A stretch of 64,000 nt of DNA from Eukaryota sp. GEM-RC1 (taxonomy: Eukaryota): the NCBI GenBank assembly GCA_040285855.1, contig JAUFOQ010000016.1:1736001-1800000 (forward strand), read 5' to 3'. A program made the translations under genes and the position numbers. The notes under the pieces are model-generated. The model was not told the DNA's origin, ran no database searches, and saw only the letters and a list, made by a program, of their open reading frames with translations. Shown here one piece after another: positions 1,160-47,600 of this stretch; position 1 is the stretch's first letter, and the number at the start of each line of letters is the position of its first letter.

Positions 1160-2250
1160 TAGTACATGTTCAGATTCAACTGAAATGCTATAACTATGAC
1201 AAATAACTGGACCTGCTCCAAATGATGCTCCACAATGGTCTTGATGTTGATACATGCTAACTTGTTAGGATTCCGAACCTTGGCGCTACCATGACATTCT
1301 TCTCTACATTCTTGGCACTTGCATCTCAACAAAGCGTGATACTTTACCAGAGATTCCTTCTTTCCTTTCCATGGTTTTGGATTAATGATTTTTTGAACAC
1401 TTTAACTGGCTTCCAACAAGTAGGACCCTTACAGAGTCATAGAAGGTTTCATAAACGGTTGACTTTGAGTTTTCTTTGGATGATGCCGACTCTTCTTGTT
1501 CAACTGTTTTTCCATCTTGGACAATGAATTTCTGTTTCTTTCCTCTTCTAAACGTTTAATGAATCTTGACCACCTGGACCATTCTGTTTCTGTCAATCTT
1601 AGCCACTCATATTCTTTGTCTCTTCTTTCTCGGTCTTTTTCTTCAGGAAATGGCCTATTTACTTCTCTCTGAACAAAAATAGAGTAAATCTGTTTTTCCA
1701 GGGTTAATAACACTTTTGTTTTCAATGAAAACTCGTCAACATCATAGTCTTGAACATATTCTTCTTTACTGGAGAACTTTGCACTGTCTGGTTTAAATAA
1801 CATTCCCACACATTCCTCTCTGGTAAGTTCAACACAAGCAGAGAAACCATCAGTTTTTATGGTATTGTTAAACTTATAACCTTTCTTTTAAATGGACGAT
1901 TAAAATTGACAAAGTGCGACCAGAATAAGTTTTGTTGTTCAGTAGATATTTTTGAGTTTCTCCTATCGTATTCCACTCAGATTGTCTTTTCTTGAATTCA
2001 CTTGTTGTGTTGACAAAGTGGAACGTAATAATCTCCAAAGACCTTGAGTGATGATTGTCACTGCAATTATGTGACGAATCTATTTAATGAATTCAGTAAC
2101 CCTATAAGCCAGTTCTATTGGGTCATAGCTAATTTTTTTCTCAATTTGAGAAAATTGCGAACCAAAAACCTCCTCAAACAACATTTTGTACACTCAATGG
2201 ACATTTCAAGTTTCACACTTCAAGTGAAACGTACTGGTATTAGCTCATTC
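1160..2250 (-). pseudogene. Decayed Fanzor (TnpB-like) gene
   Basis: Frameshifted minus-strand motifs in Fanzor order: FWSHF..., KFNNTIKTDGFSACVEL (~1830-1875), VINPGKTDLLYF (RuvC-I with D to N, ~1700), INPKPWK, and HALLRCKC...RNPNKLACINI (Zn finger/RuvC-III, decayed). The RuvC-II segment is missing. Confidence 0.75.
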
Positions 2251-3689
2251 TCAAAGTTCAACATGTTTCTATCAATGTTGGGTTCATTTGACAGCTTCGC
2301 AAGAATGACTTCAACTGAATTATTTGAAGGTGGTGGACGTTCATCAGCAATTAATGACATAATTAGTTTCTCAATTGTCTTTGTTTTTACCAGTATATCA
2401 GGCCCACCATGTATAAACTACAGCTTTGGTCTTGAGAAGTGTAACTCTCACAATTCTTTTCAACTGATTGACTGTGTGAATCATTCAAATTTTTGAAAAA
2501 TGTCCGGTGAACCTTTGTTGAGATACGCTTCACATGGAGAAATTGGATCAGTAGTTCCTTCAATGTTCAATTGATATTTAATTCTAGGAGGAACTTTCAA
2601 ATTAAGCATTGCAGAAATTTGAAGCAAGAAATTACTGTTAGAGCTAACTTTAACTATGAACTGAACTATAAGAGAACAAATTGGTTTTTCAGTGATGACA
2701 GTCATTTTTGACCAAGGTGTTGTTTTCACCAAACGTTTGAATTCACTAACAATAGCAAAATGAAGTTTAAACGTTGCCTTGATGTCAAGGATCCAATACT
2801 AAAAACATCTGAAGACCCAACATGTTCACATGGACGTGCTTTTGAAAACTCTGCTCCAAAAGATGGATGTACTAATACTTCATACATTGGCAGATTCAGT
2901 TCATGAATTGTGTTCAAAAAGTTTCACAACTACTGATGTTCTCAAGAAATTATGGATTTTTAACTCTATCAGCCAATATATGACGAAGTTATGTCGAGTA
3001 TCCTTGTTTGTATTGTTTTGAAGGTTGTAAAGAGTATTCCATTGAACATTCCTGTTTAGTAATGTTGTTCAGACCAAGACAGCAGTTGGTAACCATTTCA
3101 TTTTAATGGCATATTAATCCACTCATCTGAATATTCATTTGGAATTATATTGTGATAAATCTCACTTATGAATTCTGTTTTTGATCATCAGACAGCTGAA
3201 TTTGGTCTCTGAAATTGTGTGACATTGTCCAAATTTCCTTAAAAATCAACCATCATTTAGACATGTATGGCATAAATAAACTATACACAGACGGTTTTTT
3301 CTGTCTAGGAGGATTGTTGACTCTGAAAGAAATTTTGGTCAAAAATATACGAATAACCAGGTTCAATATTTTTTCGAGGCGAAAAAATTGATAGCATTCT
3401 ACTCTATCAAATTGAGGAAAATCGTTGAGTTGGTCTTCAGATCCAAAAAAACTACTTTGCGCTGACTGACTCGAAATTTTGCTTGTTTTACTAAGAGTTT
3501 CTAAATATGTTTGAACAAATGTGTTCATTATTTGGCTACAAGTTCAAGAGGTTGTACTGTAAGAGTATATTTGCCTTTTCGCTTAGTAAATCAATGTATA
3601 GAGATGTTGCATCCAAAAGTATAAGTTGTTTTAGACGTTCTGTAAATCTTTGTTTCCAAATTTTGTTACTCCTCTCCTAAAAGCCTTCT

Positions 3690-6363: not shown

Positions 6364-6834
6364 TTAAGATCTGAGAGCTCGTAAAACTTTGGACATACGA
6401 GACTTAGGATGATGATGACAATCCTTCAAAATTTCATGGAACTGTTCACGGGTGGAAGATTCATCACGAACAAGAGGCATGAGTTCAGTAGCTTTGGGCT
6501 TTAAACATTTTTCACAACGCTTTTGGAACTTGGGATACTCTTTCCTTTCGGAACAAAATGCGTCAACAACATCTACGTCAGACATTTCAGGATGTTCTAA
6601 GGCGAACGCGCGGAGTTTCAAAATCATTTTCTTACCATGATGCTTTGGATGTCCTTCACGGTCCCCTTTTACACGATCCATGGCGGATGACATTAAGTGT
6701 TTGGAAAGACGAGGTACGTCTTTGAGTTTTCTACCCATGCCCGAACGGATTTTCTCCATCAGTTTAGGTCGAGGTTCTTCGACGGCAGCTGCTAGTACAA
6801 CAAGGAGGAGAATAGCGACAAAGTAGATCTTCAT
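6364..6834 (-). CDS. Hypothetical secreted basic protein
   Basis: Signal-peptide-like start MKIYFVAILLLVVLAAA in an uninterrupted ORF. No family recognised. Confidence 0.7.
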   Translation of the reverse strand: MKIYFVAILLLVVLAAAVEEPRPKLMEKIRSGMGRKLKDVPRLSKHLMSSAMDRVKGDREGHPKHHGKKMILKLRAFALEHPEMSDVDVVDAFCSERKEYPKFQKRCEKCLKPKATELMPLVRDESSTREQFHEILKDCHHHPKSRMSKVLRALRS

Positions 6835-7391
6835 TGCAAGAAAAATGATTGTTGTGTGCGGAAAATAGCAAAACAACAATCATTATCTGCCAACGTTGCA
6901 ATGCAAATGTTGCTGAACGTACCCACTTCTTATGGAATCTTCTTAGTCTGATCCAGACTAATTCTTTATCCAGACTAAGTACTCTGAATACTGCAATATC
7001 TTACTAACAGAGTTCTTATTGCAAGTATCAGCAGGAGTGAAATGCATTATCCATTATATGTATAACTCGACTTTAATTATCCGTGGTTGTGTGTGTTTAG
7101 TGTAATTGTTCCTCGTTAAAATTAAATGTGGTACGGCATTTATTTATTTGTGTTAAACAGTTGAGCGTGCTCTAGGTTCTGTGGGCTTTGTCACTTGGCA
7201 ATTGACTAAATAGAAAGAGTCAGAATAACAAAAATCAATTCTGTTACAGAAATTTTACGTTGATCGTTACAATCTATGGGCCAATTATCCAGGACTTTGA
7301 AGGACTGATTGTTTTCTTGATACATGTTCACAATATTTTCGATACTTTATCCAATGTGTCATACGGCTTTCATCAAAACTGCGCCACAGTT

Positions 7392-7465
7392 GCTCTGTTA
7401 GCTCAGTTGGTTAGAGCGTGGTGCTAATAACGCCAAGGTCACAGGTTCGACCCCTGTACAGAGCA
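7392..7465 (+). tRNA. tRNA-Ile (anticodon AAT)
   Basis: GCTCTGT/ACAGAGC acceptor stem, D arm TAGCTCAGTTGGTTAGAGC, anticodon loop CT-AAT-AA, T arm GGTTCGACCC. Confidence 0.97.
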
Positions 7466-7471
7466 TTTTTT
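7466..7471 (+). terminator. RNA polymerase III terminator (T6)
   Basis: T-run immediately after the tRNA. Confidence 0.8.
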
Positions 7472-7819
7472 GTGGTTGAAAGCCATCAATTAAGACAATC
7501 AATATATATTTATACCTATATATCTTTCACACTAATAACAACACATTATGAAACAACACAACTTTTCTTTTTTTAAGAAAAAAGTTGGGATCTATGGGAT
7601 ATATTCAGAAAAGTCCCAACTCTATTCTGTCCCAAGTTTAGTATCTCCCAACTTTCTTCAGCCCAACATTTTTACAAATACGGTATGGTATTAGAGCTAT
7701 GAGAGTATTTGCAAAAATGTACATCAATTCTTTTCTAAACATATTTCGATCATCAATGTAACGTAATGCCTTGCTATTTCTCTCGTTTGGTTTTAATTGT
7801 GATAATAGAACAAAAACTA

Positions 7820-8360
7820 CTCTCTTCACAACAATTAGTCTGAAACAGACTAATTATGAATGTCCAGTGAAACAGTACCAAGCAATAGTTACTCTGATTC
7901 AGACTAATTACTGATTCAGACTAATTGATGACTGGGAATATTAGTCTGAATCAGAATAATTATGAATATTCATATTTAGTCCGAACAGCTTTCTCCCACA
8001 AACGGAATTCCTTGACCATAAATTGTTGTTATGTCTTCACAAATGTTATATTGAACACCACGATCGTTGTTTGCACCGTCAATGTTTGTTTTAGACCGAA
8101 GAAATTCAGAAACAGGACTGGTCTGCTAGCAGTTTGTTAAAAATTGATTAGTAAACGAATTGTCCTTCAAAAAAGTGTCAATGGTGTGGGACAAGATTTG
8201 TATCCGTCAATTCAAACAGTGTCTAGAACAAAAATGAAATCTTTAAAGGGACTGTTTCATACCATTTCACTTAAAAATGTTCGACATCCCTAAAGTGATC
8301 AAACAATAATTAGTGTGATTCAGACTAATTATGAATTCAGACCAATTGTTGTGAAGAGTG
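7820..8360. mobile_element. TA-flanked MITE related to the 155-1156 element
   Basis: 24-bp TIR with 2 mismatches (CTCTCTTCACAACAATTAGTCTGA versus the reverse complement of 8337-8360), TA flanks and internal TCAGACTAATT repeats. Confidence 0.75.
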
Positions 8361-9545
8361 TAGAATTCAATAACATTACAGCACCATTCATTGCCATTGA
8401 AAGTCACAGCTTCTTTTTTTAAACATCTTTTGATGATAAGAGCTAAATGAGCTTTTGACAACATAACAGGAATGATTTTAACGATTGTGAAGACGGTGAG
8501 GGCCAAAACTTATGATCAAATGTCTTGTAAATTCTTTGTTTATTAATTTCCTCAAAATCAAAGAGAAAACAAAGTGCATAATGAAACGAATATTTCATTG
8601 CGTATCTTTATGAGGAATGATATATCAATCAATCATTTTTACCAAGTCGTTAAGTCACCCATTTATTTTTCCGTCAGAAGTTTTTCCCAATTAAAAAGGA
8701 GGTTATTAGTATTAGATTTGGTAAATTGAAAACTACTACTAGTATTTTAGTACTGAAAGTATTAAATTTTCCAACTAAATCAAGGGTAAGTTCAATACAG
8801 ATTGAGCCCAAAATCTGGGTCACTTTTGAAGCAAAGCAAGTAGTCAAAAATGAAACTGAAATACGGTTACTGAGTTTCAGGTCCACACTCAGTAAAAGCT
8901 GAACGAAATAATTTCCGATGACTCATCCAAATAATACAACACTTGATTGCATCTCAAGTTCAATTGAAAAATAGAAAGGGGTGGGCTTTTCAAAATGACA
9001 CTCTTTTTTGACTCCGAAGAGTGTGGAACCAATATGATGTATCTTTCATCTATGTGCTTTCGAAGACGTCAAAAGGTAGATCTACCGTCCAAAGCTACCC
9101 CTGACCAGCTTGAAGCAACTGTTCACTCAAGCCTTAAGCCAGAGATATATCTGCTGTAGAAGTGGTGGTGAAGATACCATTTCCGAAGTTGTCCGGGTTT
9201 GAATAAAAGAGGAATGCAACGAATAATGAATAGACTGAACTCATGTTGTACTGGTGAATTCTTTGCCATAATGTGTACAAAAGTTTCAAAATGTGATTCT
9301 ATACAATAATATTATCGAAAGTCTGAATGCGAAAACGGATGTTACCGTGCTAGTGTAGCACGTTTGAAGAAAAACATTTGAAAAGAAAACAGGAGACTGG
9401 GTTGTAGTTCGACTGTTGGCAATAGATCAATGAAGGAAAATCTGTAAACAATGGTGATCAAACGGGTATTTGTTTGGTCAATTGAACAAATAAAAACAGA
9501 ATGCAAGTAGTTGAAGATGAGGAGGAGCTGATGAACGATCTGATC

Positions 9546-9918
9546 CAGTGTTCGAAAACACACGTGTCATTCAGAAAACGAACGTGTGAAACACGTTTCC
9601 GAACCGCACACGTGTCCGAACTGTGTGAATTCAACAATTCCATCCTTTCAAAGATTTCTCACTCTCCCCTCATTTCAAGATGACTGGCTCTCAACAAATC
9701 CTAATGATGATGACATTAACGATGTAACTGACGTTGAAGACTCAGAGGATGATGTGATATAGGACCCTTTTCTTGTATGTAGTGACTAGTGACAAAATAA
9801 AGTACCTCTACTTTTTGAGAACAAAAGGTGCACACGTGTCCAAAAACAAACCGAACGTGTGAAACACGTTTCCGAACCGCACACGTGTCCGAACGTTTCC
9901 GACACATTTCGAACACTG
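9546..9918. mobile_element. hAT-type MITE
   Basis: 12-bp TIR CAGTGTTCGAAA, exact 8-bp TSD ATCTGATC (9538-9545 / 9919-9926) and a duplicated subterminal GAACGTGTGAAACACGTTTCCGAACCGCACACGTGTCCGAAC block. Confidence 0.9.
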
Positions 9919-12315: not shown

Positions 12316-13231
12316 GTTTGTTACATTATGTCTAGTAGTTTTGGACTTACTCTGTTTTCTATGAATTACACTGTTTGTTGGGTAGAGATATTGTTTGTTT
12401 TTGATTTATAATGAACTTTGTCCTTACTTATCTCCATGACAGATCTCTCTGTTGTAGTGTACATTTTGACTGCAAAATTTTTGAGTCATCACCAAACACA
12501 CGTCAACTATCTCTCATTCACATAAAATCAAAAATCCACTGTATCTATAAACTCGACACCCACCGAAGAAGTTTTAAAAGGGTCATTCGGATGTGACAAT
12601 TTGTTGATGAAACTCTGTAAATACTAGTATTGTAGCATGTGTAGTCATCCAATTAACAACTTCCAACTTTCGATATCAGGTGGTAGTAGAGCAAGAAAAG
12701 GATAACATACTAGCACATACAGAAAAAAGCCAAATATAATTATCCTTAGGTCAGGTCCTTCTTAAAAGAGAAGAGAAGAGCCTAGAGAGTTTTAAACAGC
12801 ATAATCCCAGCAAAAAGGACACTCCAGCATATTTACTACATTTACTGAATTTGGCAAGTCTCCTAAAAGAGAAACAAATTCCAAATTTGTGTTTCAACCT
12901 TTTGCCAAAAATTTGCCAATATCTATTACCAAACTTATCTGCCAAATTTCGAGTTGATTGTTTAGCTCTATTGTTTCACCGTTTGTACTTTACCGCTTTG
13001 TTTTCTCAAATGTGTACTTCAGTGACAGTTGCTTTTTCAATATTGATTTCTAGCTGTTGTTTTGGTCTATTGTGCCTGTCGAGTATTGACTGACGTAAAT
13101 TCTGTCCTTCCCTTCATACTTACTTCACTTGTCAATGATACTTTCTACATTTTACAACAATCATTCAAGTATTACAGTTTCAATATTTGTTAGTCTGCTT
13201 TGTACTGTAGTATTGTATTAAAAATAATTAT

Positions 13232-16010
13232 TTGATTTGCGGAGATTGTCTCTCTGTTGATACTCTTCGTCCTCCTGTGAAAATTTCGAATCAACTCAGC
13301 CCCAAAGGTTCCATTCCTTTTTCTATTGCTTTTCGGTCTTTTACTCTAGCGCTTTCACTAGGTTCTTGGGATGTTCTTCACATCTGGAAGTTTTTTCTTG
13401 AGAAACAATCTCAATCCTGCACTCACCCTAAGAAAGTGTTTGCTCCAAAGAAATTACCAAAGGAAAATATTGTACGTCAACAACTTCTTCGAGGTAGGTA
13501 TGGTTCAGCTAAGAATGCCATATTTTCATCAGATCTCGCTCCTGTTTCTGATGACACTGTTTCTCAACTTCAGGCTCTTCATACATTGGAAAAATTTTCT
13601 CCTGTCAAGCCTATGCCTTCTTTGTATTGGAAAGAAAACCCCATTAGAGTGGATGAGTTGATTAGTTGTATTTTAAAACTCCCTTCAGAAAAAGCTCTTG
13701 GACCTTCAGGTATTACTTTTGATATGCTCAAATCTGTTTCACGTCAAAATTCACTTATTGTTGAAGATTTATGTCTCTTTTTCAACAATGTTTTGTTATC
13801 GAAGGTTGTTCCTCCTAAAGAGTTGTCTGCTTCTGGTTTGGTTGCACTGATTAAGCCTAACAAGAAAATCCGTCCTATTGCTGTCGGTGAAGCTACTTAC
13901 CGTCTGTTTGCTTCTGTTGTTTTTGGAAGAATTTCCAACAAAGCCAAGGATTTCTTTTCACCTTACCAATATGGTATTAAAACCATTGATGGAGCTTCTG
14001 TGGCTGCCCTTTCTTCTGATGTTTTCTTCAACGCGGTTGAAATTAATTGCATTTTGAATTTGGATTTTAAGAATGCTTTTAATTCTGTTAAACGATCTGC
14101 CATTTGTTCTGAATTGGAAAAGAGTTTTCCCGAATTAGGTACCTGTTTTCATTGTTTTTATGGTCACTCTTCTGACTTGGTTTTTAATTCATTTGTTCTT
14201 AATTCTGTTTCTGGTGTTAAACAAGGAGATCCTCTTGGTCCCTTCTTTTTTTGTTTGGCTATTCATCCAATCTTGAAAAACTCAAAGAAGAACATGCAGA
14301 CTTAGAAATTGTAGCTTATATGGATGACATTTCTTTTATTGCTCATATGTCAACTCTTCGTATTATTGCGAATCAGGCTGCTGATTTGTACGATGCAATT
14401 GGACTTCAATTAAATGTGCAAAAATGTTTTTGATTGCCAAAGTACCTGTAACTTTAATTGTTAATTCTTTAGAGGTTCCCTTTGTGAACTACTTATCTTC
14501 AAGCTTTAGATTTCTAGGTTGCTATCTTGGTTCACATGACAACATTGTTAAAGATCTGAATGTATATTTGGATTCAATGCGAAAAGAATTAGATCAAATT
14601 AAGGAATTGCAATTGGAAAAACATTTCAAATTCTTTATGCTAAAAATTTGTTATTCAGGAAAAGTTACTCATCTGCTTCGCTCTTTGCCCCCTGTACTTA
14701 CCTATAACTTCTGTAGAAGCTTTAACAAAATTTGAACTGACTTTCTAGCATTTTTGTTATCAGTGGATCCTGATGCTTTGAACAATCACATCTTCTCAGA
14801 TCCTCATCTAGGTGGTATTGGTTTTACTTCGTCTAAATGGTGGACCAAATCTGCTTCCATTAGTGGTGGTAAGAATTTTGTCTTTGAGTTCTGTAGACAG
14901 TACCCAAGTCAAGAAAATCTTCTTGTTTCGACAAGTAGTTTTTTATTTGTAAATTTGAGATCAGAATTGTCGCTAATTTCACCTGACCTCTGGCAAACTT
15001 GTTTTCCAGCAGATATTTGTGAAATACCAGAACGATGTGTCACCTCGTTAAAATTTGCTCTTAAGAAACTCCAAAAACACCTTTTAAAACATTTTGAATG
15101 TTTGGATTTTAAAATTCGTCTTGGCTCGGCCAAAGAAAAAATCCAGCTTTCGCAAATTTTTAAATCGATTTGAAGGACAGTTCTTCAGTTGCTTTGATTA
15201 ACCAAATTCCTCAGATTTATGGTTTGTTGTTGAATGATCATCAATGGACTACAACATTTAGACTTCGATGTTTCTTGTGGCCCTCTAATTTACCCAATGA
15301 TCTTCAATGCAAATGTGGTAAATTAGTTATTTTTTCTCACCTTTTGAGTTGTAATCGTTTCATTTCTTATAGAACTTGTATTCATGATGCTGTCAGAGAT
15401 CAAATTCATGCAATGTGTAAGTCCTACAAAATAGAATCTTTCGTTGAGCCACTGTTGAGATCACTGGAAATCAATAATTCAAAAAATAGTGATTCTGATA
15501 AGACTTTTGGTAAACGAAGAGCTGATGTTATAGTTCCATCAGTTAATGATGAACTAACCGTTGTTGATGTGATTACTGTGGATGTTTGCAAAAAAAGTGC
15601 ATTCAAGGATGCTAAAAATGAAGTTTCTCCACTGAATTCTTCAGAACAATACAAGAGAAACAAATATGATGAACCATTGACTGCTCTCCAACATATTAGA
15701 CATGTTGAGTACAAATTATGTCCTTTTGCAATTTCAATTTATGGTCGACTTGGTAGAGATGCTCTTTGTTTTCTCTCTGATTTTGAGACAGTGGTCCAAA
15801 AAATGAACCAGAAATGTACCAAAAATTTTGGTTGAATCGTTTTGTTTTTACAATATTTAAAACAATTCCTGTCATGATTTCAAAAGCTCTATTCGCTCTC
15901 AGTGTTTTTTATGAAGAAAAAGCTGATGTGAGTTTTAATGGCAATGATTGTTGCTTTAATGATATTGAGTTCTAGTTTTTGTATTTCACTTACTGTTTAT
16001 GTTCCATAAA
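13232..16010 (+). mobile_element. Non-LTR retrotransposon with RT and C-terminal restriction-like endonuclease (CRE/R2-like, family A), disrupted
   Basis: RT motifs GPSG, RPIAVGE, LDFKNAFNS, GVKQGDPLGP, YMDD (14317-14328) and FLG. CCHC (CKCGK..HLLSC), HDAVRD and RADV..VVDV..KRNKY follow. There are several frameshifts and an in-frame TGA, and the 5' boundary is not determined. Confidence 0.92.
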
Positions 16011-33644: not shown

Positions 33645-35596
33645 TCATGTTTTGGCTTTCTTCTTCTTAGTAGTAGCTGGTTTCCGTGTCTTCCTAACAA
33701 CTTTTTCCTTCGGTTTAACTTCCTTCTCCTCGTCATCACTTCCACCTGCTATTGAGTCAAACATTACACCTTTAGCCTTCAAAGTCCTTGTCAACTTTGC
33801 CTTGACCTTAGGTTCAACAGATGGTAGAGACATTCCAGGGAAAACATACTCGTTATTGAAGAATCCCCAGTCATCACGGTCAATCTGATATTTTTCCATT
33901 AATTCAACGACTGAATCGAGACCAGCTGAAACGTCATCTGATTGCACACTGATTGGTAAAGTGAGTTTTCGTAATAAATACGGTAGGTAATCTAGAGAGA
34001 ATGATGTTGATCCAGCTAACGTCACAGGATACGATCGCAAAGATAAATATTTAAATATTCGTTTGAATTTGCTAGTTTTGGAGTATTTGCCCAAAAACTG
34101 TGGAAAATCTGTTCTTTTTAAATCGCCACTGACTTTAACACCGGGATAAATACATGAAGTAATTGCTTTACAAGGCATCAAATGCCACGATTGATCTTCC
34201 ATAATTGACCGTCCAATTATATCTGATTCAGAAAACGATTGAGCTGCAACTGCCAAATTCTGCAATCGTTGATTGACGGGGACATTAAATGGAGCTTCAC
34301 TAAACAGATAATTCTCTTGAACCATTAACGGAACAAGATCGTCAACAAAATAATCATTCATACGGTCATAAATCCACGGTTTCTGTTTACCAATCATAAG
34401 TGATGAAGGTGGTGGTTTAAACATTGCAGGAACAACGGACCATGCGTTCTTTGATAGTTGTTTTAAATCTAACTTTTCAGCCACGTCAAGAAAGGAAACT
34501 GACCGTGATAATCCCAGAGCGAGTGATTGGAGTGCAGTGATGCTATATCTGACATCTGACTGTGACATTTCAATCAATTTTCGTAATGCATCGTCATCAA
34601 TTGCCACGTTTTCATTTTGAGCTATAGCACGTAACCGTGGTAGAACTTGATCAACAGTTGGAGGTCGGAACACCAAAGCCAACGAATAATTCTTTAAAGT
34701 TTTAAATTTTGGATCTCCAACATCATTACCAATACAAATAACAGGATGTTTACTTTTCTTAGCTAACTGAATCAACTGGGCTAACCCCCTCTATCCCCCG
34801 TACTCATTCCATCTACTTCATCCATAATAAGAACAGTTCTGTTAGTTCCCTGGCTTAACATTGACTCAACAGAGAATGAGGTCAAAAAGTCACGTGTTAG
34901 GTCATTAAGAAGTGTTTTTGAGCGTGTGTCTGAAGCATTGAGTTCCAGTTTCTTATAACCAAGTTCAGCTGCGATTAAGGAAGCTGCAGATGTTTTACCA
35001 ACACCTGGAGGGCCTGACAACAAGGCAATGTTATGAGGTCGGTCCTTGGAAGAGTAGAAGTTGTTAAGGAAAGTTCGAAGTGCTTTAATTGAAGTAGGAT
35101 TTCCAACGAGATCATTAGAAGTAGAAGGTCTGTACTTATCAGGCCAAACTGAGGAGTTAGAGCTTGGGTTGAGCTTAGGGACAAGTTTGGGTTGTGATAG
35201 GCTTGGCAGAGGTTGGGATAGGCTTGGCAGAGGTTGGCTACGAGGTAGTTTGAGTTTTGGCTTTTGGAGAACAGGAATTCTGAGAAGTGGTTGAGAGGTA
35301 GAGGTAAGAGTTGGTCTTTGATCTGAACGGGATCGTTCCTTTACCATGTCAAAAAGTTGTTGGAGGGTGATGGTTTTTGTGTGATTTTGGAACTTTTTCA
35401 AGAGATTTTGTAAAGGGGGAGAGATGTTTGAGCCCACTATGGCGAAGTCTGTGCGTTCTGAAGGTGTGATTTTGATTTGGGCTGAGTATTGTTCACAGTA
35501 TTGTTTTATTTCTGTGCTTGTGAAGGGGGAAAAATCACCCAGGACACACATAGAAGTGTTACGAAGACATCCAGGTGTACCTTGAGGGGGTTGCAT
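33645..35596 (-). CDS. RFC1: Replication factor C subunit 1 (frameshift near 34780)
   Basis: BRCT-like N-terminus, WPDKYRP, Walker A GPPGVGKT, ELNASDTRS, MDEVDGMSTGDRGG and the RFC1 C-terminal domain. Confidence 0.95.
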
Positions 35597-36095
35597 TGTT
35601 TCTCAACTAAGCTAAAAACACTTGTGTTGAATTCATTTGGGGTGCATACTCCCCAAAATCATTCTACATGTAGTTTTACCCCAAATACTCTTCACCCCAT
35701 AACCACATATCCCCAATCTGATACACTTATACCTTCTTTGATGGATTCCATACATCTTTTGATATCAAGTGTTGAGCTTCTTTCAAGATAGAGACGTGTT
35801 TGCAGGTATTCGTTCTTAGAATTGTGAACCGTGTTCAACCATGTCATGAATAAACTCAACGTTGTACAACAATCCTACAACACATACATCACATTGACAT
35901 CTTATCCTCCAAAGGAAAACACTAAGGTTTGCTACAACTCTGATCGTGTAATACACTGCTGTGTCTTCAGTCATTTTTGACTGCATTTTTCAATTCTATC
36001 AGATGCTATCTGGAATGAGACTAAGGTCAACGACATCAAGTCCATGAAGCTTCATTCATCAGAAGACACAAAGACACCAAGTTATAACTACATGT

Positions 36096-36740
36096 ACAAC
36101 ATTTGTAATGACAACATTTGGTGATACAACATTTGTAACTACAACATTTGAAACTACAACATTTGTAATGACAACATTTGGTGATACAACATTTGGTGAT
36201 ACAACATTTGGTGATACAACATTTGTAACTACAACATTTGTAACTACAACATTTGTAATGACAACATTTGGTGATACAACATTTGTAACTACAACATTTG
36301 AAACTACAACATTTGTAACTACAACATTTGTAACTACAACATTTGTAATGACAACATTTGTAATGACAACATTTGGTGATACAACATTTGTAACTACAAC
36401 ATTTGAAACTACAACATTTGTAACTACAACATTTGTAATGACAACATTTGTAATGACAACATTTGGTGATACAACATTTGTAACTACAACATTTGTAATG
36501 ACAACATTTGGTGATACAACATTTGTAACTACAACATTTGTAACTACAACATTTGTAATGACAACATTTGTAATGACAACATTTGGTGATACAACATTTG
36601 TAACTACAACATTTGAAACTACAACATTTGTAACTACAACATTTGTAACTACAACATTTGTAACTACAACATTTGTAATGACAACATTTGGTGATACAAC
36701 ATTTGGTGATACAACATTTGTAACTACAACATTTGGTGAG
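36096..36740. repeat. 15-bp minisatellite, 43 units
   Basis: Invariant ACAACATTTG followed by TAATG, GTGAT, TAACT or AAACT (last unit GTGAG). Confidence 0.97.
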
Positions 36741-36858: not shown

Positions 36859-37970
36859 TTAACTAACACTACTATATCCCCCCATCACCCTCGCAAACAT
36901 CACAGCCAACGAAAACGACTCCTTATATCCAATCCCACAACAATACTCACACATCACTTCACGAAATTCATCCAATATTCCCAAACAATGTTCATCACAC
37001 ATCACTTCATCATTTAAATCTAATATCGACACAACAAAAGTATTGGTCAACGACAACACATTAAAGTACTTGTCCCTATCATTCAAATGAAAACTCAAAA
37101 TTTTGGCCATTATTAAATTTAAATCTTTTAACAACTGAAGTTTCAATTTCATATGTGGAAGACAATTTGATGTTGTATCATTTTGGTTCCAGTGCAGTGG
37201 TACAATATTGTGGACAATTGTGAGAACCTTTGTTTCTGTCTGCATGGAAATAGTACGAGTATTGTTCAAGTTGTTTTCAAAGTCTGTCTGAAGACCAAGT
37301 GAATTTGTTATTCTGTTGATAGATTCAGTGTCCTCATGATCTGTAACTTTTCTTGATAATTTCAAACTAGGTAAATTCGAATTTGGTTTGAGAGTATTTC
37401 GAGACAATAGATTTGGTCTCAATTTAGGCAAAGTAGTAAATCAATACGACGTTTTGGTGAAGGAAAAACGACTTGAGATGGAGTATCGTTAATGCGAGTA
37501 TTGTCACAAGCATGTAAAAGAGTAGGAGACTGAGGCTGAGGAGGAGGAGGGGAACGAGCAATTGTAACTCGTTTAACGTCTTTGAGTAGATCCTTAAGAT
37601 GATTTAGAGTTGAAGTTGTTGATTGAAGTGGAAGAGATATGTCACGCTTCTCATAAGAACCATCAAAAGGAAAGAGATGAACAGTTTCTAGATCAACATC
37701 TAGCACAATGGCAACGGCTGCTTTGTAGTTGAGGCAAAAATCCATGGTACCCTTTTTAAGATCATCTGGTAAGTCAGATGTTGACACTTCCGTTATGTGG
37801 ATGGATTTAGTTCTCCATGAATTGTATGTTCCATAAGGAAGAAGAACAAGTGACAAATTAACTGCATGCTTATCAGCAAGCTTTACAACAAGTTTCATAT
37901 ATGTTTTGATGGTACGGGAACGACTTTCTTGTTCAGAAGTATTTCTGAGTTTGAAAATTGAGTAGGACAT
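36859..37970 (-). CDS. Orphan ORF(s) inside the Fanzor element (183 aa + 190 aa, possibly one frameshifted gene)
   Basis: Overlapping ORFs 37419-37970 and 36859-37431, divergent from the Fanzor ORF. No motif recognised. Confidence 0.5.
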
Positions 37971-38117
37971 GGGAAATTCTGGTATAGACTTTATTACAGA
38001 TTTCGTTTTTTAACACGTGAATTCCCACACACATGTCCATTACAGTCTGTGTGGGATTTCATTTTCCTTCCTCCTACAGTATAAATGTCGTTTGTTCTGC
38101 ATCCAAACAGACGTTGT

Positions 38118-38492
38118 CCGCCATTCTGTCCTTATCTGACTCAACTTGTGACTGTTTCCATTGCACGGTTTCGGGCTCAGTTGAGTTTAGATAAGGACAG
38201 TTCTTTCCCTCCACTGCCTCCGCTTCTGTTGCTTCTCCCTCTACTGCCGTTGCTTTCCCCACTTCTGTTGCTTCGATAATGCCGCCATTCTGTCCTTATC
38301 TGACTCAACTTGTGACTGTTTCCATTGCACGGTTTCGGGCTCAGTTGAGTTTAGATAAGGACAGTTCTTTCCCTCCACTGCCTCCGCTTCTGTTGCTTCG
38401 ATAATGCCGCCATTCTGTCCTTATCTGACTCAACTTGTGACTGACTCCATTGCACGGTTTCGGGCTCAGTTGAGTTTAGAAAAGGACAGTTC
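38118..38492. repeat. Three tandem copies of a unit containing a 75-nt hairpin
   Basis: Hairpins at 38126-38200, 38290-38364 and 38415-38489. CTGTCCTTATCTGACTCAACT pairs with AGTTGAGTTTAGATAAGGACAG. Confidence 0.9.
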
Positions 38493-38526
38493 ATTCTGTG
38501 TTTTATCAACACATACATTTATTGCC

Positions 38527-41500
38527 ATGAAGTACTCGTCTCCCCTGTTTATCCCTTCCCATCCTCCGTTCCCAAAAGACCTCACCGCTGATGGTGATAT
38601 TGAATCCAATCCAGGACCCGTAACTCAAGAAGCCATAAACTCAGTTTATCCTAATCAATGGGTTGATGACGAAGCGATAGTGGAGTACTGTAAAGTGATA
38701 TTTCAAGAAGCAGGGTTAGACTTTGAAAGCATGTTTATCCATCCGACCACATGGCTTCAATACATTGTTTCACCAGATGTCCCGCTAGATCAATGGTTGT
38801 TGACGAAAATTGAGAAAAATCAAATCACAAACTCCAAGTATCTCTTTGTTCCCCTTAGTGATACCATGACTAGAAATACTAATTATTCCAGAGAAGGTGT
38901 CACTGGTTCTCATTGGGGTTTAGCCATTATAGACTGTTGTGAAAAGGAATGGATCTTCATTGATCCAATGTTAACTACCGTCGATATGACTAAGTCTATG
39001 GTAAAATCAGCTGTAGACATATTATCCGAAGTACTTGTGCCATGGGGGTATGTTTTCCGTTATGTACCTGTGACTAAAAGTCAGTCTGCTAACGACTGTG
39101 GAGTTTATGTCATTGCGTATATTCAAAAATATGTTGAACTTTTTAAAAGACTCATGTATGTTCCGTCTCTGATGTATTTGGAAACTTATTTGGTCCAAGT
39201 GAACAATGAACTTCAAGCAGACATATTTCGTGAAAAAATTCGGGATGTATTGTCTCAACAAAGGACACTTTATCTACAACAACGTCAAACCACAGTAGCT
39301 CCTATTGTACCATCGTTACCCATTCAACCTCCTGCCGGTAAAGAACATCCAACCACTTCAATTCCTCTCACAGGTTCACGTCTTGCTAGTACTAAAACAT
39401 CTACTGGTTTAAGCACTAAAAAAAGGAAAGCCAAAATTTCAGATGTTCCATCACCACGAGGTTCACCTTTAATTCAACGAAATAAATTTAGAACTACCAG
39501 CTCCCTTGTTTCAACTGGTGACACTCCAATACGAAAGACCCACCGCCGTATGTCCACATTGGAATCATCGGAATTACCACAATCTGAACTATCATCACCA
39601 TCTGAACTATCATCACCATCTGAACTACCACCATCTGAACTACCACCAAAATCACAGGCCTCCATTATGTCGTATCCATCGCCAATTCAAGAAGAAATCC
39701 AAAAAATGAAAGTAAATCTACACACTGAGCCTATAGAAGAAGAAATTCAAATTCAAGACTTTCTTAAATCCCCTTTACTTTGGAACAATCTGCCAACTTT
39801 TTGTTTAATTCATGTTCAAAGTGATTTTGCCAGTTCAGAAAGAATTAATGGCAAAAATGTTCAACTTGTTCAAGATGATGATGACATTGAAACTGTTGAA
39901 GGTGAAGCTGAAGATCAATTAGAAGTTAAACGTGATTCTTCTGTTGATCCGATTGTATCAATTTCCATCCAGATCATTGATCACAATGAATTTAATGAAA
40001 AGCATTTATTTTCTCATGGTAATTTTGATACTACAAACTTGGATTTGTGTACTTTACATATTTCAGATAGTGAATCCAGTATGCTTAAAAACTTCATTTC
40101 CTTCATTACTCAACATTGTCCGCGATTGTTTGTGAGTTATGACTTTCACTTAGATACATTTCCCTTTCTTGTATCACGTTGTCAAGTCCTCAAAATCAAT
40201 ACAACGTTTACTTTTCCAGAATTTAAACCCTATATTCCCTTTTGGTTCAACAAATGGTGTAAGGAAACAACTTTTGGTCCGTTTTTTAGTCTCGATTTGA
40301 ATGCTGTATTGAAGAATTTTTATGTCTTTACTGGTGGCCGTTTTTTGGAAAATGTTGTTCAAATTTTTCTTGAAATGAATAATTTTTCTAAAAATGAAAC
40401 TGTCAAACGCTTGGAAGAACTTGATCATGACTCTGATCCTGATGAAGTTCAATTGGTCAATGATGTCCAAAACTTGCATGGCATAATTGACAGTATTAAT
40501 GTTTTAGTTCCAGACAATCCCAAAGTGAAGGTCGATAAGATTAAAAAGAAATTTGTAAAAAATTTGGAGAAAGTAAATGAACTTTGGGCCAAGGAATCGA
40601 CAAGACCGCTATTGTTGATGAACTCAATTCAACAATTACCTCTGATTGAATACTTATTGGCTGACCTATTGGATCCCAAAAAACAAACATTACGTTCAAA
40701 GTCACCAATGAAAGTGGTTAAGAAACGACTAGACAATGTTGTATCCAAAGCGAAGGTTAAATTTATTGAATCTCGTGTTAAGAGAGCTCACCAAGTAAGA
40801 GTCCGTAGTACTCTCTTTTTGAAACATTTTTTTGTTCATAATTTTCACCATTCTGGTATTTTAGGTTACATTCAGAAGTTACTGCCTGCTGCTGTTCCAA
40901 ATGTAACTGTTAAGGAAGAAATGAATTCTGATACAGATGAGTCAACTGACGAAGAAACAGATGTACATTCAGAGTCTATCGATGCTACTGCTCCTCCCGT
41001 TAAATTAGAAAATATTGAAGATGCGAGTGGTGAACCTGAACCTGACCTTTGGACTAGAATTCAAACTACCAAAATTGAATTGCCAGACTGGAAGAATTTT
41101 TTTACGTTGAAATCAATGGAACAAGTGTTATCTATGATGACGATTAGGGACTACAAACTTGTAAACAATCAGAATCATATTAGGACTGTACAAGAATCGT
41201 TAACAAACATAATTTCTAAACCAAATGATGGCTCAACTCAAAATCAGTTTGCTCAACATTTCTTGATGCATTACATTCCTCGTTTAGAACTAGCTGCTCG
41301 ATCTGTTGGACTTGATAGGATTGTGTTTCCCAGTAGCCTCAATTTATCTCCTATATTGCATTACATGGCTACAGAAATTATTACAAATTACAAGACTAAC
41401 ATGAGTGAACACTTTCACGAATATGTTTTTCAAGTATTTAATTTGGTTACCCTGAAAAAAGATAGACTTAACAAGCTTACTGATAAGAATCAACGACAAG

Positions 41501-43589
41501 AGTTGTGTACAAAGCTTAATGAAGTCAGACAGTTGATCATTAATGGGGAAATTTCAAAAATTAATTTTCAAGATGTTGAAGTGTTTCCTGATCCCAATTC
41601 TAGACTGAGTTTACTATTTTTTAACTATTTGTTTACTTTTTTTGAAGGTAAAATGGAAAAAACAATTCATTATGCTGAAAAAGTAGATCCTTTGAAATTC
41701 TTAAGTCATGCAGTGTATTTGAAACGTCTTGTTGAGGACTCTTGTACTGGAGTTACTGCCAACAATCCTTTTCCTCTGACAAAATCATTGATTCCTAATC
41801 ATATCAGATTGGATACTACATGGTTTAAAAAAGTTTATGCATCAGAAATTAAAGGTAGCTTTGATGACGTTCGAAAAGATATTTGGCACTCAGTTTTGAA
41901 ACCAAAGTTTCTTCCAAAGTCATTGTCTCATGACTTCAAATACAGTTCTATTTCTACAGATGGAGTTAGCTGTAGTTTAATGATGATGCGGAAAGATCTG
42001 CTTGATGGGAGAGGAAATCCTCATAAGAAGGTGAAAGCTGTTGACTACACAGCTACTGAAAGGTACATTGATTCTTTGAGTTCCACAGAAATTCAAAACT
42101 TAAATTTGAAATCAAAAGGAATTGTTGCTATTGATCCTAATCAGCATGATTTGATGTATTGTGCTTCTTTAAAATCTAAGGAGGAAAAGAAAATCGAAGG
42201 TTTCGATACATCAGCCAATCTCAGAAGAAGAAAGATTTGTCCAAAATCGTCAAAGAAAAAAGGAAGCTTGAAAAAATTAAAAAAGGAATTGAAGGATTGG
42301 AAAGACGCACCTACTATTGACAAACCATCAACTGTCAAGTTGAAAAATCGAGACAATTGGAAAGTATTCAGATACACTGCTGGGGAACGCAATGCCGATA
42401 TTAAAAAAGTCTCCATGGAAAAGAAAAAAACAAGTAAGGAAAGAAAAAAGAGCTAAGAGGAAGAAGAGGAAGCTGGAGAAGAAAATAAGACGATACAATC
42501 TCCACCGTTTATCTGAATCCGAACGGTTACAACAATATTCTACTCAATTTATTCACATTCCAGATGGCAGACGCATTGACATAAATGGGCAACAAATTTT
42601 AGATCAATGGGGCTCTAACTCGCCAGGTAGTAAATCTTGTGAATTGACTCAGTATTCTGCTTTTGTTCTTGGTAAAGAAATTGCCTGCTCTTTACTACGA
42701 TCACCCACTACTGATCAAAAAACTACTGAAGGAATTTACGAAGAAAAGTGGTTTAGACGGAATCGTCTCACACAGTATTCAAGAAAGGAACGAAGTGAGA
42801 AAAACATGCTTCACAGATTTACTCTCCAGTTTGGAAACCCAGATGAAGTCGTTGTTGGGTATGGAGACTGGAACGACACTGCTTTTCGTCGAAGAAGAGG
42901 TAAAGCATCTACTGTAAAAGGTGCTTCAATTCGGAAATTATTGAGAAAATTTGGATTTAAAGTGTTCCTAGTTGATGAATTTAAGACCAGCAAATGTTGC
43001 TCTGCATGTGTTTCCAGAAACGACGAAGGTATCTGTTCCAATCCTGAAAGGATAAAAGTCACTGATCCTCATTGGAAGAAGAAGTTACAGAAGGAAGAGA
43101 AAGAATTAAAAAAGGAAATTATGGAACACAATCAATTAGACAATATTGTGGAGCGTAACTTTGATGATGAATGGACCAAACAGTTGACATTATCGAAAGA
43201 AAGATTGAAGAGCAAAAAAGTCTCACCATGGGGCTTAGTTGAATGTGCCAAATGTCATGTCCTCTGGAATAGAGACTTCAATTCTGCTATCAATATTTAC
43301 AATATTGTAAATGGAACCATTCAAGGTCAAGGTAGACCTGCCATCCTCGAGAGACCAAAATCTCAAACAACACCTGTCGTGGATGGCGGGAATACAGATC
43401 AGATTCCAAAAGAAAAAGACTGTGAGTAAGGGTAAGGGTAAAGCAAAGCGTCCTCTAACAAAAGTCAGAGGTCCTAACAAGTGTGGTATATGTTTTCAAC
43501 CTGGACATAACAGAGCAACTTGTCCAAATAAGCCTAAGAAAGATGTACCCAAGGACTCACATGTAAACCAGAAAGATCAGGAATCTTGA
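38527..43589 (+). CDS. Multidomain Fanzor: 2A peptide, Ulp1/C48 protease, PolB exonuclease-like, Fanzor RuvC nuclease, CCHC knuckle (two +1 shifts in A-runs near 42420 and 43410)
   Basis: DLTADGDIESNPGP; SHWGLAIID..IDP..QSANDCGVYV; STDGVSCSL; VAIDPN (D 42133); VGYGDW; LVDEFKTSKCCSAC (E 42977); CAKCHVLWNRDFNSAINI (D 43274); CGICFQPGHNRATC. Confidence 0.88.
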
Positions 43590-43708
43590 ATCTATGAAGT
43601 TAGCTCGTCTTAAAAGACTTTGCGAATGAGGACATTTATTTGTTCAAACTGTGGGTTTTGCTCTATGAGATCATGAAAATGTGAAGGGTTATTCCCTTAT
43701 GCATTTGG
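43590..43708 (+). ncRNA. Candidate Fanzor omegaRNA scaffold (3' part)
   Basis: Non-coding segment between the Fanzor stop and the inferred right end, ending in a 12-bp hairpin (43677-43706). The 5' extent is unknown. Confidence 0.45.
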
Positions 43709-43771
43709 AATGAAATTCACAGTTGTGTTTCAGAACCACATTTTGGAAAATAAAGCACAAATTCCACAACA

Positions 43772-44629: not shown

Positions 44630-47600
44630 TTATACTTCCGGCTCATCTTCAAGAGTCTGAAGTTCAAAAGCAACCAGATACAAGGGGTTTTCATAAGGAG
44701 AAAGTCTCTTTGGGATGGTATTTCCAAACATTTTCTTAAAAAAATCTTTTTTCCGATGGAATATAATCTCTACTACAATCAATCCAAAGGACAAAGTAGA
44801 AGAAATACCCGCAACTGACCCAAGAACCCCTCCAACCTTTGATACCAACGTATCTTTATACCTTTTCTCAGTAACTAAAGCAAACTGGGATTCATCCAAT
44901 TCAACAACAATTGAAAGACCAGATGAATAAGAGAAGTCCTGATTAGCCACCAACTGTCCTTCCTTTTTAGAATCTAGTCTTATATGATATCCAAAAGAAG
45001 TAACTCCATTAGATTGATCATGGAACTGAGACTTGGTTGCTTCAAAGGCAAACACATTAGGTTTGGTTCCTCTTAGGATCATGTCTGTAGGTGCAATGAT
45101 TCGTTCTGAGACAAAAGAGTTGTTCCAGGGGGAGAGAAGAGGAGGATGAGATGTTGAGCTCGATTGAATGAGCAAAAATGCTAGAATCAATGGTAGTAAA
45201 AACGACTCTACTCATAGATGAAGAAGCTAAACACTCCGAAAGGACTAGTTCAAACAAACAGCCATCACTAAAATCTAATGGAAAGATCAAATCAAAATCT
45301 AAACACTCGAAATTTTCAAAATTTACTGAGAAATCACCATCCTGGCAGCTTCTCTGAGGGCCAGTTGCTAGTACAGTCACGTTTCCTGTGAAGTAAACAT
45401 CAGATTGGAGGAGGAAGGAAGGTTCCGTTGACCGGTAGTAGGCAAAGTTATCCATTTGGTATTCAACAAAAGGATAGCAGAAAAGGCTAGCGCAAAGATG
45501 ATGAACCAGAAGGAGAAGAGACCTCCAAGACGAGTTTTCCTCTTGGTGATGACTTGGTCGTTTTCAGTGAAATGTTGACGTGAGAAGAGATCAATAAACA
45601 CTAATTTTGAGCTATTGGCTCCCATAAACGCAACCAATATTAGCACGAGCACAGCCAAGATATACGAAATTACTAGTATACTATTAGAAACAGCTGCAAC
45701 TCTATCTGTATTAGGTTCAGGAAGTCTAGGTTGACTTGAAATAGAATGCCCACCAACAGATGTATTAGTTGGTCTCGGGTACAGCGATCCTACTGGGCAG
45801 TACTCATCCTCACTACAAGGGAAACAAGAAGAAGATCCAGCATAAGGTTGATAGGTTTGCGCTGGGCAAGGTAGACAAGACTCAGATCCAATGACTGCGA
45901 TAGTATCTGAGAAGAAGCCAGGTGGACAAGGAACACAGATGGATTGGGAACCAGATGATGTACCATAGAGTCCTTCTCTACATGGAGAGCAAATCTCTGG
46001 TGACGTGGTATTCTGTTGACTTCCTAAGAAACAATCAAGTTTGCAATCAAACCCACGTGATGTGAAGTCGTCACACGTGATTGATCTTAAAAAGAGTGAC
46101 GACAATCCAAAATTGGAAACCGCGGTCAAACTTCGTACTGAAGATCCACCAAATATAAACACTTGATCCCCATAACCAACAGCTGAAAACTCTAAAATAG
46201 GGTCAAAATAATCATGTAAAAATTCAAAAAGTGAAGTCCAGTGGTTTCAGTAGTCGTCAGTTCTGGAACATAAAGAAAGCTCACAGATCCCATGTAAGAA
46301 CCCCATACCGATCCTCCAATGTATAGCAAAGTATCTCCAATTAAGAGGGAAGTGTAGCTATCTACTTGAGAAAGAGCATCATCTAGAACAAGACTCTGGG
46401 AATACCAATAAGCCTCGTTATCATTTAAAATAGAAGAAGTACTGACCTTGAACAAAGTATTCTGCATGGCAGTAAACGTGCCCAATCGACCACCAGTCAA
46501 AAATCAAGTAGGGATCATCTGATTTTGTAACGATAACTAATTGACAACTATCAAGACCTGGGGGCCGGAATCCTGTAGATTCAACTTTCTTCCAAATTCC
46601 CAGTCGAAGATTCAATACATACAACCTATTGGATAAAGAAGAAGAGGTTCGGCCACCATAAACAAACACGTGATGTTGATACCTGGTAGAACATGCCCCT
46701 GACATGGGTGTTGGAACATCTCCAGTGACCTCAAGAATTGACCATTGAGTAGCAGAAGTGTCATAAACAAAGACCGATGACGTCAACTCTCCTGAAGTAG
46801 ATGAACTTCCAAAAGAGAGAAGATGCGGCGTCCAAAAGAGACAACTGAGTGACCAGTGTAGTAGTCAGGAGCAAAAGAAGAAACTACTTCATCACTAGAC
46901 CAAATAAAAGTAGACAAATCCAAGTACCAAACCAATGTCTGAGTACCACTGAGTTGTGACCTTACTCCTCCGATGAGAAACATCCTGTTACCAACAGTGA
47001 CAGCCTTGTGTTGAGTAAGAGCAACAGGAGAAGGGAAGTGGTGGGAGCTGATGTGGAAGTGGGGATCGGATAAGTCCTTGAGATGGAGGAGGAGGAGAGA
47101 GTTCTCAACTCTATTAGAGTAGTAACCACCAAAAACAAACAGACGATCAATGAATAAACTACAAGTACCAGAGTCAAATGCAAAGTCTTCATGGTTATCA
47201 CCTCTAACTAAGGGAAACGACTTCCATTGCCACGTGGCAACATCAGGAGAATTGTGTGTGGATAGAACTTGCACTACATCAGAAGGACGTTGCAGGACAC
47301 GTAACCACCCGCCTAAGATAACCAAGTCACCATCCGGAGTTAAAGTAGAAGGAGCAAGGTAAGTAGCAATGGGTGACCCTGAGATTAAGTTAGAGACGTC
47401 AGTTAAGTTAGCACTAAAGGAATCGCCATCTTTAGTTAGTTCAACTAACCAAGTATCATTCATATCCCTTCCTGATACCCCTGCGTTGGTTCTACCTGAG
47501 TAGAGAACGAAAGTGTGGGTGAGAAAGGGAAGTACAGCGGTGAAGGGGGCTTGTCTTCCTGAGAAAATAGAACCAGGTGTAAGAACCTTGTACCAATCTA

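Follow-up and report, generated by a model that had tools for sequence, protein, structure and literature searches.

A Fanzor1-type element in the genome of Eukaryota sp. GEM-RC1 appears to encode, ahead of its RNA-guided nuclease and directly behind a 2A-like motif, a cysteine protease that most resembles NEDP1/SENP8. The element lies in a stretch of 64,000 nucleotides (contig JAUFOQ010000016.1, positions 1,736,001 to 1,800,000; hereafter the window, in whose numbering all positions are given), and the organism is the same as Skoliomonas sp. GEM-RC, a free-living anaerobic metamonad (PMC11316075). By profile, order of residues and fold, the domain is a clan CE / C48 peptidase with predicted catalytic activity, and on sequence and structural models we lean towards a trans-acting isopeptidase that removes NEDD8 or ubiquitin at the nuclease or its target sites. 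The modules follow one another in the order repeat-containing leader, 2A motif, protease, basic linker, dead exonuclease, Fanzor1, zinc knuckle:

38016..38062, no strand assigned: hairpin just 5′ of the first ATG, a candidate left-end or promoter feature
38085..38577, + strand: leader, starting with the ATG at 38085, that comprises three tandem repeats of 118 nt (38118-38524)
38578..38619, + strand: 2A/StopGo-like motif DLTADGDIESNPG|P, with the skip predicted between Gly 38614-38616 and Pro 38617-38619
38617..39270, + strand: SENP8/NEDP1-like C48 protease domain (Trp38659, His38911, Trp38914, Asp38962, Gln39082, Cys39097)
39271..39783, + strand: low-complexity Pro/Ser/basic linker without Gly-Gly, with NLS-like KKRKAK at 39418-39435 (NLS, nuclear localization signal)
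39784..40665, + strand: PolB (Pol delta-type) 3′-5′ exonuclease domain, catalytic acids lost
40687..42453, + strand: Fanzor1 N-terminal part to RuvC-I, Asp 42133 (IDPN), in the same frame as the protease
42344..43429, + strand: Fanzor1 C-terminal part with RuvC-II Glu 42977 and RuvC-III Asp 43274, in a second open reading frame (ORF)
42424..42449, + strand: A-runs with a frame change inside the nuclease, read through by P0028, P0035, P0036 and P0037
43410..43589, + strand: C-terminal tail, encoded in a third frame and ending with the stop at 43587-43589, with a CCHC zinc knuckle at 43482-43523
43590..43770, + strand: non-coding stretch, the expected site of the omega-RNA and right end

The original prediction had proposed an intact Ulp1/SENP8-like cysteine protease from the sequence of this region, and the residues it named were all found where it had placed them. 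The catalytic codons are CAT (His38911), GAT (Asp38962), CAG (Gln39082) and TGT (Cys39097), in the order H, D, Q, C, and they share the frame of a 1,365-codon ORF (38359-42456, + strand) with the motifs WVDDEAI, FVPLSD and GSHWGLAIID, which start at 38659, 38845 and 38905. The profile search by which it could have been refuted returned Pfam Peptidase_C48 at 25.3 bits (cut-off 20.7, E 1.6e-5). AlphaFold2 run on the single sequence gave an unusable model (pLDDT 41.8); from a 31-row alignment the domain was modeled with confidence (pLDDT 92.7, pTM 0.91). In a Foldseek search with this model, NEDP1/SENP8 chains held ranks 1-4 (E 6.5e-8), and VIA-align superposed the model on NEDP1 as a CE fold (Z 17.2, rmsd 3.0, 184 residues aligned), ahead of NopD and XopD (16.1-16.4), SENP5 (15.5), SENP2 (14.6) and Ulp1 (14.0-14.2); SENP1/2 and Ulp1 together spanned 13-14.6 and the viral proteases I7L and pS273R 12-13.5. 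A profile built from element sequences only scored SENP8 at 57.2 bits, Ulp1 at 52.7, NopD at 42.9 and SENP1 at 36.8, and NEDP1 was thus top-ranked by profile, Foldseek and VIA.

Both Trp38659 and Trp38914 are retained, and we take them to be the Trp residues of the Gly-Gly tunnel. The first Trp is remarked on in PMC4961225, which also defines the VR-3 insertion before the catalytic His; in our alignment the long loop at 38863-38907 corresponds to this insertion and is of the NEDP1 type. The VR-1 beta-hairpin, which binds the modifier in NEDP1 and SENPs (PMC4961225), is absent from the predicted skip product, whose first modeled residue is matched with residue 12 of NEDP1, and the 2A motif occupies its place.

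The proline of the predicted skip site is the first residue of the protease domain. Its NPGP is the sole one in the six frames of the window (chance expectation 1.2e-6), the motif fits the class A 2A consensus GD(V/I)ExNPG|P (PMC3708506), and a supplement of PMC12338488 gives this 14-mer among predicted class A 2A sequences. Among first protease domains whose start is intact, 34 of 35 have a 2A-like motif directly before them, a count biased upward by a search query that itself contained the motif; it is also found in three proteins retrieved with a RuvC query instead (P0113-P0115). The motif heads those protease-less relatives and is missing before internal tandem protease domains (the second domain of P0074, and P0079), and is therefore not part of the protease. 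The leader that would be released changes frame twice in this copy and is in frame in sister models, two of which (P0011, P0012) share its start Met; leaders of other subfamilies also contain repeats, but of different sequence. One further protein, of 940 aa (P0092), has at least three 2A motifs very like that of the element and resembles an RNA-virus polyprotein. It matched by these motifs alone and is a possible hint at the origin of the element's 2A motif.

Downstream of the protease, the linker contains KKRKAK, which we read as a candidate NLS. The exonuclease domain matches its Pfam family at 30.5 bits (cut-off 23). Active DEDDy exonucleases carry DxE in ExoI, D in ExoII and YxxxD in ExoIII; here ExoI reads H-V-Q (39811-39819), the ExoII Asp is replaced by Thr (40156) and YxxxD is absent near 40621, and judged by these residues the domain is catalytically dead. 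The nuclease has the features of Fanzor1: the RuvC D-E-D triad (Asp42133, Glu42977, Asp43274) with a shifted Glu, and a C4 zinc ribbon (42995-43009 and 43244-43255). Its C-terminal part matches Pfam Cas12f1-like_TNB at 36 bits (cut-off 26.3), and the closest solved structure is SpuFz1 (E 1e-13). Protease, exonuclease and RuvC-I share one frame with no in-frame stop across 1,308 codons. A chain that starts at the skip-site Pro and ends with the stop codon at 43587 would be about 1,656 residues long, counting residues 30-1041 of the window protein and the 644 of P0028; most Fanzor1 proteins have 600-700 (PMC11423790). The 2A motif, the exonuclease domain and the frameshift inside the nuclease were missing from the context that the original prediction had given to the protease.

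Copies of the element, protease-less relatives and frame breaks

The element is a multi-copy Fanzor1 mobile element, judging from its sister copies, which we compared as proteins only. Clusters retrieved with the RuvC half comprised 58 sequences, and in two homology searches all matches (3/3 and 8/8) came from Eukaryota sp. GEM-RC1. A profile-free search of 1.84 billion representatives returned 29 matches, comprising 20 of element type, 7 cellular-type C48 proteins, the multi-2A protein described above and one chance match with fibronectin repeats (P0088), which we discarded. Ten of the 29 were looked up for species, among them 8 from GEM-RC1 and 1 from TZLM3-RCL; the other element-type matches were assigned by sequence alone.

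Among element proteases the His, Trp, Asp, Gln and Cys are nearly invariant, with lineage representatives 17-42% identical. The Cys is kept in 32 of the 37 element domains that span His to Cys, and the five without it are all of one second-in-tandem domain type. In a 43-row tree, the GEM-RC1-type proteases split into many lineages on one side of a 99/98 branch, with the 7 cellular-type proteins and the RCL element protease on the other; this tree has long branches and no SUMO-protease rows, and descent from SENP8 as opposed to SUMO proteases cannot be read from it. Tandem protease domains occur in P0067, P0068 and P0074, both being intact in P0074, and the second domain has Ser in place of Cys in P0067, P0068, P0094, P0102 and P0004. 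Two of these (P0094, P0102) join a B-type double protease to an A-type body, the type found in the window. Separately, P0074 and P0099 have locus tags only two apart (008387, 008389), which suggests that an exonuclease-Fanzor body of the window type also follows a P0074-type double protease.

Three clusters (of 6, 4 and 12 members) that contain no protease were retrieved from the second species, TZLM3-RCL, by searching for long proteins with a RuvC query. Their representatives P0113-P0115 consist of leader, 2A motif, linker, intact exonuclease (DxE, D, YxxxD) and Fanzor1, in a complete single ORF in P0113 and P0114, and the best solved match to the exonuclease of P0115 is DNA polymerase delta (E 4.8e-6). 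TZLM3-RCL also has the 2A motif with a protease (P0087, 4 members). Since the 2A motif, exonuclease and Fanzor of P0113-P0115 come without a protease, the protease is an optional cargo of these elements. The precomputed family PF26935 is assigned on two of P0113, P0114 and P0115.

At 60 other Fanzor loci, a weak control with many short contigs, neither a C48 match nor a 2A motif was found (0/60). Searches for the relatives' DNA returned none in viral contigs (queries P0028 and A7) or in metagenome contigs (A7), and a further query (A6) returned distant Fanzors only. At one locus (L031) a Fanzor1 gene (1673-3676, + strand) and a complete gene for a family B DNA polymerase (6495-9572, - strand) are separated by about 3 kb, a setting where an exonuclease-Fanzor fusion could arise. 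Four loci contain long Fanzor-like ORFs of 850-920 aa whose N-terminal parts have no Pfam match (L055 5627-8389, L043 320-2977, L057 1701-4340, L047 191-2758).

The fusion of protease to nuclease, as the original prediction had it, is evident in this copy only up to the first RuvC Asp (42133); the frame then changes at 42424-42449, which places Glu42977 and Asp43274 in the second ORF; the other frame-change sites are one near 43410 and the two in the leader. At the first RuvC break, sister models P0028, P0035, P0036 and P0037 continue uninterrupted, and in P0028, P0035 and P0036 the overlap with ORF1 extends over 267 residues (94% identity); the break near 43410 is read through by 12 sister models. 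An intron at the RuvC break (13 formal GT-AG candidates) was rejected because the sister models are colinear without a gap.

Sequencing error is the likely cause of these breaks, with real slippage possible. Of 42 window-type models we left 18 aside (12 in which the frame stays open at 43411, 1 with a natural stop, the window's own protein and 4 of a diverged subfamily), and among the remaining 24, which end early, 18 (10 of 15 distinct sites) stop within 10 nt of a homopolymer run, as compared to a background of 11%. The assembly combined nanopore R9.4 reads with Illumina (PMC11316075). The window's host genes show such frame changes as well. In the RFC1 gene one lies beside a G5 run (34775-34800, - strand), and kinase genes (near 10800 and 17350) and a kelch gene (near 47600, 55560) also continue in another frame. 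Each of seven formal frame-restoring introns in the RFC1 region would remove residues of a box that we presume to be conserved, and an indel is likelier there than an intron. The homopolymer ends, the R9.4 assembly and the frame changes in host genes together point to error, and the window sequence probably carries indels of this kind. That the frameshifts are instead real, and this copy a dead member of a live family, is a serious possibility though not what we expect: it would account for the density of frame changes, and homopolymer runs are also prone to replication slippage, but it sits poorly with the long stop-free frame, the excess of homopolymer ends among sister models and the frame changes in RFC1 and other host genes. 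It concerns this copy only and does not compete with the mechanism proposed below.

Substrate and role of the protease

The reading that we prefer puts the protease at the head of a likely ~1,650-residue polyprotein encoded by a multi-copy Fanzor1 element. The ribosome would skip at NPG|P, dropping the variable leader and leaving the protease as the fixed N terminus of the nuclease chain, which would remain a single piece and enter the nucleus. A guide RNA would then bring the Fanzor particle, with its tethered protease, to DNA sites, and tags would be stripped from the particle itself or from host proteins at the guided sites. The protease might thereby shield the nuclease, foreign to the host, against turnover by ubiquitin ligases or against silencing, or tilt repair towards copying of the element, and would be an optional counter-defence accessory, dispensable for cutting. 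It is plausible that the protease acts against silencing by the host or in repair.

That the protease stays attached to the chain is suggested by the linker without Gly-Gly and by the location of ORF1's only Gly-Gly, which is part of the exonuclease fold and is found again in relatives that have no protease; both tunnel Trp residues are kept, which together with that linker points to an outside substrate. Predicted to have stayed active through duplication, diversification and swapping, and lost in some relatives, the enzyme would fit a counter-defence cargo acting on host proteins, and the amplification and swapping of its domains are as expected of cargo in conflict with the host. Its substrate is, on sequence and model, more likely NEDD8 or ubiquitin than SUMO: the two of the seven cellular-type matches that were checked are both SENP8 (152 vs 33 bits for SENP8 vs Ulp1 in P0091, and 116 vs 44 in P0084).

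Several points weigh against this reading. NopD and XopD lie within about 1 Z unit of NEDP1, and Ulp1 scores just 4.5 bits below SENP8 in the profile search, so that the fold does not reveal the specificity. In NEDP1 numbering the predicted skip product begins at residue 12, without the VR-1 hairpin, and a 2A motif by itself is no guarantee of skipping (PMC3708506). This copy is frameshifted, with four frame changes in about 5.5 kb, and because no retrieved gene model runs from protease to RuvC-III (the longest, P0014, has 1,040 aa) the full chain is pieced together from overlapping copies. No omega-RNA was found at 43590..43770 (fold z -1.5, best local z -2.1, no Rfam match at gathering score); the ends of the element were not found, with no terminal inverted or direct repeat above shuffles; and there was no transposase among the window ORFs scanned. 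As for VR-1, ChlaDUB1 lacks it and yet cuts ubiquitin and NEDD8, and the SUMO activity of XopD survives VR-1 mutations (PMC4961225).

By the same token the loss of VR-1 is compatible with a SUMO protease, one that would counter SUMO-dependent silencing or alter break repair, as the original prediction had emphasized. We consider this unlikely, although it fits the close Ulp1 score (52.7 bits vs 57.2 for SENP8), the high rank of NopD and XopD (which have been solved with SUMO and with ubiquitin) and the precedent of Ulp1-bearing VANC/KIU anti-silencing proteins. It is weakened by the lack of SENP1/Ulp1-type proteins among the cellular matches checked (2/7 of those in the 29), by the lower Z scores of SENP1/2 and Ulp1 (13-14.6 vs 17.2) and by the NEDP1-like loop before the catalytic His.

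We give still less weight to the protease being a captured passenger or non-catalytic binder without effect on the spread of the element. Its dispensability and the retention of a dead second copy (Cys to Ser) in one subfamily would fit, but the near-invariance of its His, Trp, Asp, Gln and Cys at 17-42% identity does not, nor does the fact that the neighbouring exonuclease lost its catalytic acids while the protease kept its residues. A protease that processes the polyprotein, freeing itself from the nuclease as viral CE proteases do, was also part of the original prediction and is now disfavoured to the point of being improbable. Its position in a polyprotein, its lack of the VR-1 modifier-binding hairpin and the single Gly-Gly that precedes the knuckle in both subfamily A and subfamily B would suit such a role. 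However, the interval between protease and exonuclease lacks Gly-Gly in P0001, P0014, P0094, P0068, P0004, P0072 and P0077; ORF1's single Gly-Gly, inside the exonuclease fold, is also present in P0113-P0115 and absent in subfamily B; Gly-Gly counts equal chance; I7L and pS273R rank lower (Z 12-13.5); protease-less relatives share the same body; and the 2A motif already offers a cut at the N terminus. Least probable of all is that the 2A motif skips inefficiently, leaving a leader/2A peptide as a VR-1 arm or as a switch of specificity between two forms: the motif does stand where VR-1 would be, XopD has a disordered, proline-rich VR-1 (PMC4961225) and many natural 2A-like motifs are weak (PMC3708506), but the same motif heads protease-less relatives and is lacking at internal tandem domains.

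Going beyond the trans-acting deneddylase or deubiquitinase that we favour, one may tentatively picture an RNA-guided eraser of ubiquitin-like marks, with a swappable cargo slot behind the 2A motif; the guide RNA would bring enzymes that edit chromatin or repair to the cut site, and the element would spread by homing without a transposase. The slot would hold, with the same reserve, arrays of SENP8-like proteases in one lineage and only an intact proofreading exonuclease in another. Homing by cut-and-copy is a mechanism of TnpB; for this element it is only a lead.

Flanking DNA

The hairpin ahead of the element stands out in a DNA fold of 37990-38090 (z -3.8), with none of 200 shuffles equally stable. 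It lies in a 115-bp gap across which two overlapping minus-strand ORFs (36859-38009, ATG at 37970) diverge from the element. These ORFs, without a Pfam, PHROG or Atlas match, are probably one frameshifted gene, possibly of the host, possibly a second one belonging to the element. In the interval from RFC1 to the element, an array of about 40 copies of a 15-bp unit (36095-36735) has open frames on both strands. Elsewhere in the window, a reverse-transcriptase ORF (13211-14305, + strand; RVT_1, 49.4 bits) lies between near-duplicate kinase genes (9932 and 16627).

Comparison with known systems

Ulp1 domains on transposons are already known, and Ulp1 and OTU domains recur on unrelated ones (PMC2836005, PMC13317346). 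In the parts available to us of the literature searched, we found no report of a Fanzor with a protease, exonuclease or 2A motif; the search included PMC10530073, PMC10432273, 10.1101/2023.08.09.552727, PMC3627910, PMC12338488 and PMC13405545 (the last two with their supplements), with the supplements of Fanzor papers, Repbase and subscription journals lying outside it. One paper mentions Fanzor and Ulp1 together and was set aside as a precedent, since Ulp1 is a reagent there. For twenty years Ulp1-type domains have turned up on many transposons, but no function of theirs is known to have been tested. Because the protease here is tied to a programmable nuclease, has close relatives with and without it and comes in natural dead and tandem variants, the role of transposon ubiquitin-like-modifier proteases becomes testable at a chosen locus. 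Our reading, if true, would add a DNA element to the RNA viruses and retrotransposons in which 2A recoding is known, and would more than double the usual size of Fanzor1. In addition, P0113 and P0114 are full-length natural exonuclease-Fanzor fusions and possible editing tools.

With the Fanzor1 proteins SpuFz1, PpFz1 and GtFz1 the nuclease shares the RuvC D-E-D triad and a Glu six residues before the zinc ribbon, to which the window protein adds the 2A motif, protease, exonuclease and CCHC knuckle. NEDP1/SENP8/DEN1 is the best profile and fold match, with the same catalytic residues and long loop before the His; at about 18% identity, however, the element protease lacks residues 1-11 (VR-1) after the predicted skip and is fused, multi-copy and sometimes tandem or dead. 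The exonuclease of P0115 has its closest solved structure in the proofreading domain of DNA polymerase delta, but the element has no polymerase domain, and its exonuclease is dead in the window subfamily and intact in P0113-P0115. L1Tc, Ingi, CR1, L2 and Crack also carry GD(V/I)ExNPGP near the N terminus of a single long ORF (PMC3708506); these are retrotransposons with APE and RT, whereas the element has neither. A transposon-carried C48 domain is shared with Kaonashi/KIU-VANC MULEs, Ginger1 and Mutator: such domains are reported from Ginger1 and Mutator (PMC2836005) and from KIU/VANC elements, for which PMC13317346 gives the function as unknown; the roles proposed for transposon-borne ones are in anti-silencing or repair (PMC2836005, PMC13317346). 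In those elements the C48 domain accompanies DDE transposases or VANC, whereas here it accompanies an RNA-guided nuclease and a leading 2A motif. If the element is indeed a guided eraser of ubiquitin-like marks, it would be a natural counterpart of engineered Cas-effector fusions.

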